A DNA stretch of 64,000 bases. Source: Minisyncoccota bacterium (GTDB lineage: Bacteria; Patescibacteriota; Minisyncoccia; Phycocordibacterales; SBAW01). This document shows positions 8,202 through 62,763 of the stretch, in pieces. The DNA lies in the NCBI GenBank assembly GCA_035546615.1, contig DASZWM010000006.1, forward strand, positions 144,417-208,416. Reading direction: 5' to 3'. Positions within the stretch are counted from its first letter, which is position 1; each line of letters starts with the position of its first letter. The notes beneath the pieces were generated by a model. That model searched no databases, had not been told where the DNA came from, and worked only from the letters and a program-made list of their open reading frames with translations. The position numbers and the translations under genes were made by a program.

Positions 8202-8804
8202 ATGCTTGCCGTTGACGTAGAATCCTCCGGCACGGAGGCCCACAAGCACTCCATTTTGAGCCTCGGCGCCGTCGACCTCGGCAATCCGTCCAGGCCCTTT
8301 TTCTACGAAGAGTGCCGCGCCTGGGACGGCGCCAAGCTCGAGCCCGAGGCATTTGCGGTGAACGGCTACACCGAAGCGACCGCGACCGACCCGACCAAAC
8401 AGTCCGAAGCCGACCTGGTGCATAAGTTCAAGGAATGGGCTATGCAGTCCGACGACCGCACCTTTGCGGGGCAAAACGTTTCCTTCGACCGCGATTTCCT
8501 TAAGTACGCCGCCGAGCGCGCGGGGCATACCGACTGGCCGTTCGCACACCGCACCATCGACACGCATACCCTGTGCTGGATGCACATGGTAAAGCGTGGC
8601 CTTACGCCGCCTCTGGACCCGGTAAAGAAGCGCTCCGCGCTCGATTTGGACGCCATTCTGGTCTACTGCGGCATTCCGGACGAGCCGACGCCGCACAATG
8701 CTCTCACGGGCGCCAAGTCCCATGCCGAAGTCATCTCGCGCCTGTTGTACGATAAGAAGCTCCTGCCCGATTTCGAGCAGTTCGACATACCCTGGCTCTC
8801 ATAG
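8202..8804 (+). CDS. DEDDh 3'-5' exonuclease (DnaQ-like)
   Basis: Exo I DxE (VDVESSG), Exo II and Exo III H...D (HNALTGAKSHAE) motifs are present. Confidence 0.75.
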   Translation: MLAVDVESSGTEAHKHSILSLGAVDLGNPSRPFFYEECRAWDGAKLEPEAFAVNGYTEATATDPTKQSEADLVHKFKEWAMQSDDRTFAGQNVSFDRDFLKYAAERAGHTDWPFAHRTIDTHTLCWMHMVKRGLTPPLDPVKKRSALDLDAILVYCGIPDEPTPHNALTGAKSHAEVISRLLYDKKLLPDFEQFDIPWLS

Positions 8805-9325
8805 CCGTTCTTTGGTAGGGTCAAAATAGAGCAACCGCTCTGTCAAAAAGAAGGAATATCCGATGACAGGAATAGTCGATACACGCCGCGCATGTCTAAG
8901 ATGCGGTAGCCCCATCTCATCCGCAAGCAGCCCGCTTGTTGTGCAAGAGCGAGGCTTCAGCGCAGAAGCGTGCGTGCCCGCTGCGATATGTCGCAATTCG
9001 GCCTGTGGCCAGGTCACTGCGGATCGCGCAAGTGTGGCGAACTCATCGTTGCGGTGGATGTACGGGCGCACCCCGGTCACTTTCGTTCCGGGCCCGATTT
9101 CCCGGTCTAATGAGTTTTTGCTTACTCCTACGGCCGCGCAGCTCCATCGGGCGTAAGGCTCAACGGAAACGTCACCTCCCCGTCGCGTCCAGTACAGGAT
9201 GCGACGGTTTTGCTTCGCAAACCCGCGACCCCGCCTCACAATCGCTTTAGCGATATGTTCCGGCCTTCAATTCCGGGCGCAGGCAAAGCAGTTTACCTGC
9301 TCGGCCCTCCTTCGTTAACACTCAG

Positions 9326-9396
9326 TCGGGCCGCCGGGAATTGAACCCGGTCTACATGCACCCCATGCATGTGTACTGCCGGTATACTACGGCCCG
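9326..9396 (-). tRNA. tRNA-Pro (anticodon GGG)
   Basis: Manual cloverleaf fold. Acceptor CGGGCCG/CGGCCCG; D-stem GTAT/GTAC; anticodon stem CATGC/GCATG with loop ATGGGGT (U33, GGG, G37); T-arm CCGGG-TTCAATT-CCCGG; discriminator A. CCA is not encoded. Confidence 0.8.
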
Positions 9397-59450: not shown

Positions 59451-62300
59451 TTAGTGCACCACGAAACTTATGACCTTACCAGGAACATACACCGCCTTTA
59501 CCTCCTTGCCAAGGGCGAGCCATTTAGCCACCCCGGCCTCGCCGCGGGCTGCCGCTAGAGCCTCTTCCTCCCCCGCCGAAGCGGGGATATCCACAGTGGC
59601 ACGCAGCTTCCCGTTCACTTGGACCGCAATTTTAGCGGTAGCGGAGACTATTTTTGCAGCATCGAATCGGGGCCACGGAATTTCATGTATCGCAGCGCTT
59701 TCGCCCATTCCCTCCCACAGCTCGGATGCAATGTGCGGCGCAAGCGGATACAGCATCTGCAAAAATATTTTGTATGCCTCTCGGGGAACCGAAGGAAGTT
59801 CGGCAAGCGCGTTGAGCAATATCATCAAGCTCGAAATGGCGGTATTCATTTTAAGCCCGTCGAGATCTTCCCCGACTTTCTTGATGGTCTGATGCAAAAG
59901 CGTCTCCGTCTTCGCATCAAGCGCCCCATCGCCTACCTCAAGCTTCCACACGCGCTCCAGGAACCGGCGCGTGCCGATGATATTCTGCGAACTCCACGGC
60001 TTGTGCGTTTCAAGCGGGCCCATGAACATCTCGTAGAGCCGCAACGTGTCGGCGCCGTACGTTTCCGTGATGTCCATCGGGTTTACCACGTTGCCGAACG
60101 ACTTGCTCATCTTGCGGCCGTCCTCCCCGCCGATAAGCCCCTGGTGCCGAAGCTTGAGGAACGGCTCAGTGAAATCAATAAGCCCATGCTTTTGAAGCGC
60201 TTTGGTGATGAAGCGCGAGTACAAGAGGTGCAGCACCGTATGCTCGGCGCCGCCGACGTACAAGTCTACCGGCAGCCACTTCTGTATAGCCTCAGGACTC
60301 GCAAACGCTGTTTCGTTATGCGGGTCGCCAAAACGGAAATAGTACCAAGAAGAACATACAAAAGTATCCATCGTGTCTATTTCGGGCTTCCAGCCTTTTC
60401 CGAATATCTTTTCCGTGCGCTCAAGCAATTCTTTCGACTGTCCGAGCGGCGAGGTGCCCTTGGGGCTGAACTCGACGTCGGTGGGCAGCATCCACGGCAG
60501 ATGTTCCTCCGGAATGGGATGCGGCTTGCCTTCCGGGTCATAGACCACGGGTATAGGCGCGCCCCAATACCGCTGGCGGGAAATAAGCCAGTCGCGCAGG
60601 CGGTAGGTCGTGACCCACTTGCCGCCGACGAAGTCGGTTATCTTCTTCTTGGCTTCTTCAGATTCAAGGCGAGTAAATTTGCCGGAGTTCGAGAGCGTAC
60701 CGTAACCGGTATAGATATCCTGCTCGCCCAAGAGCCAGCGCAGCGCATGCAAGTGCGTATCCGGGGTCAGGAACTTCTTAAGCTCGTCAGCGGTAAGCCA
60801 AAGCACTTCATGTATTGCCTGCTCGTTTTGGGCGACTTCCGCGCGCGCGTCGCTCTGGAGCTCCAGATATACGACGTGCGCGTGCGCGTTTCGATTGGTC
60901 TTCTTCGGCACATGGTAGAACTTCCCGTGCACGACGCCGAAATCCCGCACGAATTTAGCATCCGTATAGCCGACTTCTTCGGCAAGCTCGGCCTTGGCTG
61001 CCGTCTCGGGAGTCTGACCCGGCTCGATACCGCCGGTTATGAACGTGCCCCAGGCGACCTGCTTCCACTTGAGCGCGATATATTTGTCTTCCTGCCAATG
61101 CTTAACAATGGCGATTATCGCTTCGCGATGGTCGAACGGCTCGCCTTCGCGGATTTTCCCCGGTTCTGTCCCCTGCTCATAGGTCGGCTCAATAACTTCT
61201 TTGATCGGAATATTGAATTTCTTCGCGAACTGATAGTCGCGCTCGTCGTGGGCAGGCACGGCCATGATGGCTCCGGTGCCGTAGCCGCCCAGCACATAGT
61301 CGGCCACATATATCGGAATCTCTTCCTTGTTCGCGGGGTTGATAGCTTTCACTCCCTTCAGTTCTACGCCTGTCTTGTCCTTCTGTTCTTCCTGACGCTC
61401 CAAGTCAGTTTTATTCTTTGCAGCGGCAACGTATGTTTCCACTTCCTCTTTATTTTCCAGATTTTCCGCGAGGGACGCTACCAAAGCATGCTCCGGCGCC
61501 AGCACCAGATACGTCGCGCCGAACAAAGTATCCGGCCGAGTAGTGAATACCGTAATTCTGGACTTCGTAAGTCCAGATACTTCAAAATCTATCTCCGCGC
61601 CCTCAGAGCGGCCAATCCAGTTGCGCTGCGCTATCTTGGTAGACTCCGGCCAGTCGACCTGGTCAAGGTCGTTTGCAAGCGCGTCGGAGAATTCGGTGAT
61701 CTTGAAGAACCACTGCGCGAGATCCTTCTGGATGACCTTCGTGCCGCACCGCACGCACACGCCCTTTTCGCCCGTCTCGCTTACCGTCTGCTCGTTGGCG
61801 AGCACCGTCTGGTCCTTGGGGCACCAGTTCACCTTGGCCATGCGCTTTTCGGCCAGGCCATTGTTGTATAGAAAGAGGAAGAACCACTGCGTCCATTTGT
61901 AGTACTCGGGCGTGTGCGTGCCTATCTCGCGCGACCAGTCATATGAGAGGCCCAGGCTCTTTATCTGCGCGCGGAATGCGTTTATAGACTCTTCAGTCGT
62001 CTTAACGGGCGGAACGCCGGTCTTGATGGCGTAGTTCTCCGCCGGCAGGCCAAACGCGTCCCAGCCCATCGGGTGCAGCACGTTGAACCCCTGCATACGC
62101 TTGAAGCGGCTATAGATGTCGGTGGCGGTGTAGCCCTCGACATGGCCAACATGAAGTCCTGCGCCCGAAGGGTACGGGAACATATCGAGCACGTACAATT
62201 TTTCCTTTTTGGAGTCTTCGTCAGCCTTGAACGCCTGGGATTCTTCCCAGCGCTTCTGCCACTTCTTTTCTACAGCCTTGTGGTCGTACTTGCCAGCCAT
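59451..62300 (-). CDS. leuS: Leucyl-tRNA synthetase with inserted Nudix-like domain
   Basis: HVGH (HIGH-type), CP1 editing domain (TTRPDT), YRLRDW, KMSKS. ~150 extra residues sit between the CP1 end and YRLRDW. Confidence 0.9.
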   Translation of the reverse strand: MAGKYDHKAVEKKWQKRWEESQAFKADEDSKKEKLYVLDMFPYPSGAGLHVGHVEGYTATDIYSRFKRMQGFNVLHPMGWDAFGLPAENYAIKTGVPPVKTTEESINAFRAQIKSLGLSYDWSREIGTHTPEYYKWTQWFFLFLYNNGLAEKRMAKVNWCPKDQTVLANEQTVSETGEKGVCVRCGTKVIQKDLAQWFFKITEFSDALANDLDQVDWPESTKIAQRNWIGRSEGAEIDFEVSGLTKSRITVFTTRPDTLFGATYLVLAPEHALVASLAENLENKEEVETYVAAAKNKTDLERQEEQKDKTGVELKGVKAINPANKEEIPIYVADYVLGGYGTGAIMAVPAHDERDYQFAKKFNIPIKEVIEPTYEQGTEPGKIREGEPFDHREAIIAIVKHWQEDKYIALKWKQVAWGTFITGGIEPGQTPETAAKAELAEEVGYTDAKFVRDFGVVHGKFYHVPKKTNRNAHAHVVYLELQSDARAEVAQNEQAIHEVLWLTADELKKFLTPDTHLHALRWLLGEQDIYTGYGTLSNSGKFTRLESEEAKKKITDFVGGKWVTTYRLRDWLISRQRYWGAPIPVVYDPEGKPHPIPEEHLPWMLPTDVEFSPKGTSPLGQSKELLERTEKIFGKGWKPEIDTMDTFVCSSWYYFRFGDPHNETAFASPEAIQKWLPVDLYVGGAEHTVLHLLYSRFITKALQKHGLIDFTEPFLKLRHQGLIGGEDGRKMSKSFGNVVNPMDITETYGADTLRLYEMFMGPLETHKPWSSQNIIGTRRFLERVWKLEVGDGALDAKTETLLHQTIKKVGEDLDGLKMNTAISSLMILLNALAELPSVPREAYKIFLQMLYPLAPHIASELWEGMGESAAIHEIPWPRFDAAKIVSATAKIAVQVNGKLRATVDIPASAGEEEALAAARGEAGVAKWLALGKEVKAVYVPGKVISFVVH
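60729..61220 (-). other. Nudix-fold insertion within leuS
   Basis: GGIEPGQTPETAAKAELAEEVGY aligns to the Nudix box GX5EX7REUXEEXGU, with Glu->Gln and Arg->Ala substitutions. Confidence 0.6.
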
Positions 62301-62337
62301 GTGCTATACAAAGTACCACACAATTCTTAAAAGAAAA

Positions 62338-62763
62338 CTACCGAACCGTGCCGAAGTATATTTGGTTAGTTTTCTGCGCATCAATGCAATGCTGGTCGCC
62401 CACAATGAGAGGACTCGGTAATGATTTTTGCGAATACCAACTCCATTTCTCACATGAACTATACTGCGTGACTATAGGTTCTCCGGACTTCCATTCTGCG
62501 ATAACCCCAATATCTAAATAATGTGAACCTTCCCAGCTAAGCACGTTCTGAAATGCAACGACTTTAGGATTTTGGATTTCGATGCCGGCTTCCTCACGGG
62601 CCTTACGTATAGCGCACTCCTCTAGTGACTCGCCGAACTGCAAGCGGCCACCGGGACCGGCATATTCTTGCTTCCCATCACCGCGGACGCGCTTACCGAA
62701 AAGGATTTCTCCGTTTTTGTATATAACTACTCCGACAACCACCTGCGGCTGCGGTTTCTCCAT
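62338..62763 (-). CDS. Nudix hydrolase
   Basis: Canonical Nudix box GPGGRLQFGESLEECAIRKAREEAGI. AT-richer than its neighbours. Confidence 0.8.
   Translation of the reverse strand: MEKPQPQVVVGVVIYKNGEILFGKRVRGDGKQEYAGPGGRLQFGESLEECAIRKAREEAGIEIQNPKVVAFQNVLSWEGSHYLDIGVIAEWKSGEPIVTQYSSCEKWSWYSQKSLPSPLIVGDQHCIDAQKTNQIYFGTVR

Follow-up and report, generated by a model that had tools for sequence, protein, structure and literature searches.

Cells obtain Ap4A-type dinucleotides mainly from aminoacyl-tRNA synthetases, and the coupling between the level of these compounds and translation is a long-standing question. In NadM-Nudix, a HIGH-motif nucleotidyltransferase and a Nudix domain acting on an adenine dinucleotide-type metabolite are known to be combined in one polypeptide. 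The leucyl-tRNA synthetase (LeuRS) described here is homologous over its full length to the LeuRS of Thermus thermophilus (1H3N/2BYT) and Escherichia coli (4AQ7/4ARC), with phmmer E values of 5.6e-217 and ~1e-196, respectively. Compared with such bacterial LeuRS with CP1, it adds a Nudix domain of ~150 residues between T. thermophilus (Tth) positions 372 and 377. In a survey of 213 events, the LeuRS editing domain was always the insert and never the host (PMC13114784); because its own CP1 editing domain hosts the Nudix domain, the present LeuRS is a counterexample to that survey.

A 2017 review of the Nudix clan contains neither the word "tRNA" nor the word "synthetase," and no model or description of a LeuRS with a Nudix domain was present in the profile libraries searched. 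Literature searches covering LeuRS or aminoacyl-tRNA synthetases with Nudix, CPR, Parcubacteria, or Patescibacteria gave no paper describing the architecture, in agreement with the preliminary description, which knew of none. Proteins bearing the insert are at present annotated just as "leucine--tRNA ligase" or "class I tRNA ligase family protein." All coordinates refer to the window, the whole stretch of 64,000 nt that was analyzed from a Minisyncoccota bacterium (GCA_035546615.1, contig DASZWM010000006.1, 144,417 to 208,416).

The host synthetase

The LeuRS in the window scored 973.1 bits against the NCBIfam equivalog TIGR00396 (leuS_bact), for which the cutoff is 548.4, and the match was broken at residue 378 by the insert (Table 1). 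The aminoacylation motifs HVGH (residues 50 to 53) and KMSKS (residues 730 to 734) were found, together with the editing motifs TTRPDT (residues 253 to 258) and GTGAIM..AHD (residues 341 to 352, with AHD at 350 to 352). The HVGH, KMSKS, TTRPDT, and AHD columns were invariant across 65 homologues. Alignment to T. thermophilus LeuRS indicated that the leucine-specific domain, corresponding to Tth 577 to 637, is absent from the window LeuRS. Aminoacylation and editing by this enzyme appear to be intact.

Table 1. Features of leuS, its nested Nudix insert, and the neighboring Nudix gene, in window coordinates
Feature	Position	Strand	Residues or length	Basis or remark
leuS, bacterial-type leucyl-tRNA synthetase	59451..62300	-	949 aa	ORF, TIGR00396, motifs
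YRLRDW	60588..60605	-	leuS 566-571	
CP1 editing domain, C-terminal part, continuing past the insert	60621..60698	-	535-560	PF13603, Tth alignment
Nested Nudix module with structured linkers	60699..61190	-	371-534	
Pfam NUDIX match within the insert	60735..61055	-	416-522	PF00293
Variant Nudix box GGIEPGQTPETAAKAELAEEVGY	60966..61034	-	423-445	Q429 for Glu, A437 for Arg
NIPIKEVI	61191..61214	-	leuS 363-370	
CP1 editing domain, N-terminal part, hosting the Nudix insert	61191..61625	-	226-370	PF13603
MutT-like Nudix gene	62338..62763	-	141 aa	37 bp upstream of leuS; Pfam NUDIX 53.6 bits
Nudix box of the neighboring gene GRLQFGESLEECAIRKAREEAGI	62581..62649	-		RK where RE expected (RKAREE)

A Nudix domain nested in the CP1 editing domain

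The preliminary description had placed ~150 extra residues between NIPIKEVI and YRLRDW, after the end of CP1, and had taken them for a Nudix module. The extra stretch was borne out by the coordinates, by the T. thermophilus alignment, which skips from query 380/Tth 372 to query 530/Tth 377, and by minimal relatives, in which the insert site measures 17 residues compared with 194 in the window LeuRS. Its position required correction, since the CP1 model PF13603 was split by the insert, model positions 1 to 146 aligning to residues 226 to 376 upstream of it and 152 to 183 to residues ~526 to 557 downstream; the insert thus lies inside the editing domain rather than behind it. When the whole LeuRS was searched against Pfam, NUDIX (PF00293) was matched with 47.8 bits (gathering score, 21.1; E, 1.9e-12), far beyond chance, and the insert alone scored 52.2 bits against the same threshold of 21.1. 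The insert also has the alpha/beta/alpha sandwich of the Nudix fold. Profile match and fold comparison therefore confirmed a true Nudix-fold module as opposed to an ordinary LeuS linker, and residues 371 to 534 were shown to form a complete and genuine Nudix-fold domain within a CP1 surface loop, at approximately Tth 372 to 377. The Nudix box GX5EX7REUXEEXGU is incomplete in the insert, 7 of 9 specified positions being kept (G423, E438, L439, E441, E442, G444, and Y445); the two deviations are those reported initially, namely, Gln in place of E429 and Ala in place of R437.

The insert was present in 92 of the 120 nearest LeuRS and absent from those of T. thermophilus and E. coli. By tblastn, 133 genome loci were confirmed; 80 were kept, with titles mostly from Patescibacteria. 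On the sequences compared, the insert appears to be specific to Patescibacteria, where the architecture is common. This comparison, with the 17-residue site of the minimal relatives, upheld a lineage-specific insert, and extra length as a trait of typical bacterial LeuRS was ruled out by the minimal relatives and the T. thermophilus alignment. An assembly chimera, an intein, and a mobile element were likewise ruled out, as the insert keeps the reading frame, matches the remainder of leuS in GC content, is joined to it by linkers that are modeled with confidence, and recurs among homologues whose sources are spread over several public collections.

The Nudix family of the insert was found at no fewer than four LeuRS sites (core positions ~209, 240, 362, and 443), in 1 to 3 copies per LeuRS, and once inside an archaeal-type ProRS, between the anticodon-binding and C-terminal domains. 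It also includes small stand-alone genes (~41 representatives), some of the Q type, in which the box has Gln/Ala for Glu/Arg. Free-standing Q-type copies were located upstream of leuS in two loci, at a distance of 46 bp in one (L050) and 2.4 kb in the other (L048). Among the top 150 matches, the hosts characterized for proteins of more than ~400 aa were LeuRS, as judged from the core HMM or from Pfam, or the single ProRS, the exception being a 467-aa protein (P0238) with Nudix domains only and no host domain. These results show a Patescibacteria-centered Nudix family that has been built repeatedly into aminoacyl-tRNA synthetases and also occurs free-standing, in some cases beside leuS. Ham1, HAD, and alpha/beta-hydrolase domains were also found nested in related LeuRS, where several loops are occupied.

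The neighboring Nudix gene

The stand-alone gene upstream of leuS had been described as a canonical Nudix hydrolase of lower GC that was not a close paralogue of the insert but formed a striking pair with it. Its Pfam score supports a Nudix hydrolase, but not a fully canonical one: its box has Lys for the Glu of REUXEE, a state common to its closest homologue only, with RE in 35 of 40 homologues. The score with TIGR00586 (the MutT 8-oxo-dGTPase equivalog), 42.5 bits, was also below the cutoff of 97.9. The lower GC was confirmed (0.488, versus 0.56 for leuS), with a GC3 of 0.50 compared with 0.70 for leuS and 0.70 to 0.78 for the flanks of the neighbor. Insert and neighbor had no detectable similarity (BLASTP E = 19), so that they are indeed not close paralogues, and paralogy was ruled out.

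The pairing itself did not stand. Among 25 related loci with the same upstream membrane-protein gene, the neighbor was found at this position in one (L009), and in most of them the membrane-protein gene directly adjoins leuS. With this count and the outlying GC3, a conserved operon of leuS and the neighbor was ruled out. The neighbor is compositionally foreign and lies outside the LeuRS module. A weaker form of the juxtaposition survives, in that other Nudix genes directly precede leuS in independent lineages, a MutT-like one in L048 and the Q-type stand-alone copy in L050.

Possible function of the nested domain

No characterized Nudix subfamily reached threshold for the inserts in NCBIfam or in a PDB sequence search, the best scores being 25 to 30 bits against 95 to 259. 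The best match was RppH (NF001937), at 25.2 bits against a cutoff of 139, so that no curated model of the Ap(n)A hydrolase/RppH subfamily was matched, and the canonical-box inserts of other LeuRS scored ≤30 bits against the subfamily models. Structural neighbors were 2AZW (Enterococcus faecalis MutT/nudix), the ApnA/polyphosphate enzymes Ndx1 (1VC8), Rv2985 (9CXX), and DIPP/DDP1, and RppH and AvrM14, of which the nearest, 2AZW, is without an assigned function. The pocket residues R392, K466, N469, R470, E493, H497, and W501 are kept in the window copy, the first five being the shared basic and acidic residues. A conserved aromatic pair, F461/Y462, lies 16 to 17 residues past the box; Tyr87 of human NUDT2, the specificity aromatic in the X-loop of that Ap(n)A hydrolase, has a different spacing (PMC5389931). 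The preliminary description had proposed either hydrolysis of synthetase side products such as Ap4A or other nucleotide conjugates or a degenerate, regulatory nucleotide-binding module, and both remain hypotheses. The structural neighbors and the conserved basic pocket lean toward polyphosphate nucleotides as the putative substrate.

The explanation that we favor, tentatively, is that the nested Nudix domain, as part of a synthetase-coupled Patescibacteria family, could bind or act on ApnN-type by-products of the synthetase. The metal-binding Glu residues and the basic pocket are kept. The module would bind Mg-polyphosphate nucleotides and would act on adenylylated by-products (Ap3-6N and p4A) formed from aminoacyl-adenylate and a nucleotide. 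These would be hydrolyzed where they are made or, in the Q type, would be bound or sensed with weakened catalysis. The architecture suggests, for these synthetases, an additional role in dealing with Ap4A and similar nucleotide by-products. Counted against this explanation were the Ham1, HAD, and alpha/beta-hydrolase domains of sister LeuRS, which are not specific to ApnN, as well as the subfamily scores, the functionally unassigned 2AZW, and the lack of a canonical partner within the 64 kb, a degenerate copy being always accompanied by a canonical one in multicopy proteins.

The Q-type state was observed in 73 of 244 family copies and is a conserved subfamily trait in which the Arg of the box has been lost in step with the change of Glu to Gln. 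As the window box is without the GX5E Glu and the Arg, and one in four Q-type copies has QE for EE as well, hydrolysis may be weak or absent, a further point against the favored explanation, and the conserved Q/A variant may leave the catalytic competence of the window copy in doubt. A noncatalytic Q-type domain could serve LeuRS as a structural or allosteric ligand-sensing domain or form the inactive half of a pseudo-heterodimer beside a canonical copy. Noncatalytic Nudix domains have precedents in TRPM2 NUDT9-H, NrtR, the MutY C-terminal domain, and mitoribosomal L46. However, E438 and E442 are each conserved in 100% of Q-type copies and E441 in 75%, and the window copy retains the shared pocket; given these Glu residues and the basic and acidic pocket, a role in the fold only is not expected. 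Moreover, the window LeuRS has no canonical Nudix partner in cis or within the 64-kb window, and stand-alone Q-type genes exist. A noncatalytic role is accordingly rated as rather unlikely.

Q-type inserts were 83 to 89% identical where the LeuRS catalytic cores were only ~52% identical, and by this measure the window copy is more conserved than the aminoacylation core. Recent horizontal transfer of a cassette was ruled out as the cause of the higher Nudix similarity, because at 4-fold degenerate sites the background identity (0.2 to 0.5) was alike in Nudix, CP1, and core. The insert and the LeuRS core had discordant histories, suggesting that cassettes were gained, lost, or replaced. Such discordance would suit a hitchhiking nucleotide-pool sanitizer, independent and with no mechanistic link to aminoacylation, which, like the other nested hydrolases of sister LeuRS, had lodged in tolerant surface loops because its host is essential and constitutively expressed and the genomes are streamlined. 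Several unrelated hydrolase folds in several LeuRS loops and the stand-alone family members also favor such a role, and Nudix, Ham1, and HAD are classic house-cleaning families. Against it, the host is nearly always a synthetase, and the multiple copies per LeuRS, the stand-alone copies beside leuS (L050 and L048), and a conservation exceeding that of the catalytic core argue for coupling to the synthetase, making independent house-cleaning unlikely.

Improbable, finally, is an enzyme on CP1 that strips tRNA of a 5'-triphosphate or Np(n)N/NAD cap or of a pyrophosphate or nucleotide adduct at the 3' end, the other nested hydrolases providing further end repair: CP1 binds the tRNA acceptor end, where the 5' and 3' ends are adjacent, RppH gives the best HMM similarities, and the structural neighbors include RppH and AvrM14 along with other decapping enzymes, but every RppH score is far under its cutoff, the ProRS module has no obvious acceptor-end position, stand-alone family members exist, and unprocessed or capped tRNA ends are without support in these organisms.

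A wider reading, also unlikely as a whole, is that patescibacterial synthetases might be platforms for nested hydrolases (Nudix in 1 to 3 copies, Ham1/ITPase, HAD, and alpha/beta hydrolase). These would provide an undescribed second layer of quality control or signaling built into the synthetase, destroying or sensing Ap(n)N alarmones at the source or repairing or decapping the tRNA acceptor end, with the Q type being the most constrained because it would mediate the coupling.

A Nudix-bearing synthetase would be a natural experiment, with canonical-box and conserved variant-box forms in close relatives, and would allow a direct test of the physical coupling of nucleotide synthesis with removal or sensing. 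The CP1 editing domain can host further domains, though reported only as an insert, and the unusual set of nested hydrolases in CPR LeuRS bears on how functions are packed into very small genomes.

Comparison with known systems

The small Nudix hydrolases 2AZW, Ndx1, Rv2985, DIPP/DDP1, and RppH are only 14 to 21% identical to the insert; they are free-standing, whereas the window domain is nested in a synthetase and has Gln/Ala for the Glu/Arg of the box. NadM-Nudix (NMN adenylyltransferase with ADP-ribose pyrophosphatase; PRK05379) showed, in its Nudix half, weak HMM similarity to some LeuRS inserts, far below the cutoff, and is a terminal fusion of another Nudix subfamily to another host, in contrast to the nested insertion in LeuRS. 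IleRS with GNAT (NCBIfam NF040702, "ileS_w_GNAT") is likewise a class Ia synthetase with an extra catalytic-type domain, curated as distinct, and differs from LeuRS-Nudix in both added domain and host. TRPM2 NUDT9-H resembles the window LeuRS in placing a Nudix domain inside a non-Nudix host; there, the embedded domain has a degenerate box and acts as a ligand sensor. The box substitutions that inactivate human TRPM2 resemble those of the Q type, including EE to QE (PMC6461439, PMC4974056). In contrast to TRPM2, the window copy has its E-U-x-E-E intact, the losses being confined to the GX5E Glu and the Arg, and the subfamily and host are unrelated.

Results

The window LeuRS scored 973 bits against NCBIfam leuS_bact (cut-off, 548), and its HVGH, KMSKS and CP1 editing motifs (TTRPDT and GTGAIM..AHD) were invariant in an alignment of 65 homologues. 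The leucine-specific domain of Thermus thermophilus LeuRS (Tth 577-637) was absent. Between NIPIKEVI (residues 363-370) and YRLRDW (residues 566-571), the window protein has 194 residues compared with 17 in minimal close relatives, and alignment to T. thermophilus LeuRS jumped from query 380/Tth 372 to query 530/Tth 377. Pfam NUDIX matched residues 416-522 at 47.8 bits (gathering score, 21.1), bearing out the preliminary description, which had proposed a Nudix domain here. That description had placed the insert after the end of CP1. The LeuRS editing-domain model PF13603 was instead interrupted by it (model positions 1-146 before, 152-183 after), and the Nudix domain is therefore nested within CP1. 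The full-length predicted model gave a pLDDT of 89.5 and a pTM of 0.79. Its linker blocks (361-390 and 521-540) scored 87-94, which points to an insert rigidly integrated in CP1 rather than floppily tethered.

The Nudix box deviated from the consensus only at E, which is Q429, and at R, which is A437, the same two substitutions noted at the outset. Among 244 aligned copies, the canonical Glu/Arg pair was found in 143 and Gln at the Glu position in 73; a few copies had M, H or L there with K as partner. In a separate tally of 86 Gln-containing (Q-type) copies, Arg was kept in 2 and otherwise replaced by A, M, T, Q or S. Both types retained R392, G423, G424, E438, E442, G444, Y445, K466, N469, R470, L481, E493, H497 and W501, while E441 was conserved in 100% of canonical and 75% of Q-type copies. 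H401, W402, V415, T430, H458, H463, P465 and H473 were additionally fixed in the Q-type. Copies of this type were nested, arranged tandemly after a canonical copy, or encoded by stand-alone genes. By these alignments, the variant box marks a conserved subfamily rather than decay.

Features of the window, of related genome loci (L-numbers) and of homologous proteins (P-numbers)
Feature	Location	Strand	Remarks
leuS, bacterial-type LeuRS	59451..62300	-	ORF, 949 aa
Variant Nudix box GGIEPGQTPETAAKAELAEEVGY	60966..61034 (residues 423-445)	-	Compared with GX5EX7REUXEEXGU
MutT-like stand-alone Nudix	62338..62763; box 62581..62649	-	Pfam, 53.6 bits
Point lacking leucine-specific domain	about 60114..60134		Between residues 723 and 730
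tRNA-Pro(GGG)	9325..9396	-	Sole tRNA or Rfam match in the 64-kb window
Nudix family in LeuRS	Core about 362 (the window's site)		177 copies; local HMM/Pfam mapping
Nudix family in LeuRS, further sites	Core about 209, about 240, about 443		Local HMM/Pfam mapping
LeuRS with two or three family copies	P0124, P0125, P0152, P0128, P0139, P0154; L036, L038, L042, L056, L063, L070, L078		
Archaeal-type ProRS P0262	L082 2906..4837 (8.5-kb contig)		Family member between anticodon-binding and C-terminal domains
Stand-alone Q-type gene	L050 5980..6471		46 bp upstream of leuS that has a canonical insert
Stand-alone Nudix genes	L048 5932..6480, 8395..8844		Q-type 2.4 kb, MutT-like 4 bp upstream of insert-less leuS
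NUDT2-like Nudix	L050 10177..10674; L001, L043, L045, L055, L057, L038, L063		
Ham1/ITPase	P0002, P0183		Equivalent of window residue 244; P0183, between catalytic and anticodon-binding domains
Ser_hydrolase/alpha-beta hydrolase	P0098, P0138, P0216		About window residue 244
HAD	P0073, P0220		P0073, exactly at the window's Nudix site; P0220, further downstream

A Nudix domain occupied the same site in 92 of the 120 highest-ranking LeuRS homologues. When one genome from each GTDB species was scanned by pattern for Q-type motifs only, 133 loci were confirmed; the majority of the 80 kept came from MAGs under the labels Paceibacterota, Kaiser-, Adler-, Sung-, Moran-, Azam-, Colwell- or Doudnabacteria, “Saccharibacteria” or similar. 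An exhaustive phmmer search with the insert against 1.84 billion cluster representatives gave 323 matches at E<=1e-3 (170 at E<=1e-10), which were placed on their hosts with local HMMs and Pfam. Stand-alone members numbered about 41 representatives of 150-190 aa. The box in the ProRS, GGQDNLDIKEAAQKEIIEETGY, is shorter by one residue, lacks the Glu and has Lys in place of Arg.

In the QA-type group, the Nudix segment was more conserved than any other part of the protein. Nudix domains 83-89% identical to the window's were present in several LeuRS whose catalytic cores were only ~52% identical, whereas LeuRS with 80-83% core identity had either a canonical-box insert of only ~34% identity or no insert. 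This discordance implies that the cassette was gained, lost or replaced long ago. Set against P0010/P0016-18 and P0059/P0064/P0097/P0104, the window LeuRS is a mosaic. In pairwise codon alignments to genome loci, four-fold degenerate third positions were at background identity (0.2-0.5) in every region, which rules out recent transfer as the cause of the high Nudix identity and indicates long-term purifying selection. Since synonymous sites were saturated everywhere, the mosaic is due to old cassette replacement or recombination acting together with a Q-type Nudix that is very strongly constrained. The insert (GC, 0.577; GC3, 0.71) agrees in composition with the remainder of leuS.

The stand-alone Nudix gene directly upstream of leuS showed no sequence similarity to the insert and, at GC 0.488 and GC3 0.50 against flanking GC3 values of 0.70-0.78, is a compositional outlier, suggesting recent acquisition; the lower GC and the lack of close paralogy had both been recognized previously. 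It scored 42.5 bits against TIGR00586 (cut-off, 97.9). It had been called canonical, but its box reads RKAREE rather than REUXEE, with Lys beside Arg where RE has Glu. This Lys was common only to the nearest homologue, P0274; 35 of 40 homologues were canonical. Among 25 related loci keeping the upstream membrane-protein gene, the Nudix gene was in place in only one (L009), and in most others the membrane-protein gene directly adjoins leuS, so the pairing is sporadic and recent. The juxtaposition described as striking is thus sporadic for the window pair, although Nudix genes do lie beside leuS in independent lineages. Stand-alone Q-type genes upstream of leuS are the gene-neighborhood counterpart to the nested fusion. 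Several “Saccharibacteria”-labelled genomes also carry a NUDT2-like Nudix gene (box GHIEEGE..TAEREI.EETGL) 1-1.7 kb downstream of leuS, in the order nusB-Nudix-rnc in the one locus inspected (L050).

Discussion

CP1 contains a rigidly built-in Nudix-fold domain that is very strongly constrained, and the family of this domain is repeatedly tied to synthetases by nesting and by gene neighborhood. The domain probably has a Mg-polyphosphate-nucleotide binding pocket, judging from the EUXEE glutamates that it keeps, from a conserved Arg/Lys/Asn/Arg/Glu/His set and from structural neighbors that include ApnA, polyphosphate and RppH enzymes. Synthetases convert aminoacyl-adenylate to Ap3-5N (PMC7705103), and one ProRS also has a nested family member; the most economical reading, still tentative, is therefore that the module hydrolyzes these by-products, the Q-type perhaps only binding or sensing them. 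The insert reached no model threshold for a characterized Nudix subfamily and is thus assigned to no specific Nudix enzyme.

That the domain is non-catalytic, with a structural or allosteric role or as partner in a pseudo-dimer, seems unlikely. One canonical and one degenerate copy were present in 14 of 17 multi-copy cases (including the stand-alone-plus-insert pair of L050), and none of the 17 had two degenerate copies without a canonical one; this pairing suggests an intramolecular pseudo-heterodimer in most multi-copy LeuRS. No second family member accompanies the window's Q-type copy within 64 kb. Somewhat more doubtful is a house-cleaning enzyme that hitch-hikes, uncoupled, in tolerant loops. 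Related patescibacterial LeuRS carry nested non-Nudix domains (P0002, P0047, P0183, P0098, P0103, P0114, P0138, P0216, P0073 and P0220). The relative closest to the window protein, P0002 (83% identity), has a Ham1 domain that the window protein lacks. An activity directed at the tRNA end is improbable.

As the preliminary description had supposed for LeuRS, no account of a Nudix module in this or any other synthetase was found in the literature, and the words “tRNA” and “synthetase” do not occur in the Nudix clan review of 2017. In a survey of domain insertions from 2026, the LeuRS editing domain is reported as insertion-only, never as a host (PMC13114784). Pfam annotations already precomputed for public proteins show the Nudix-in-LeuRS architecture, which is therefore unremarked rather than unseen.
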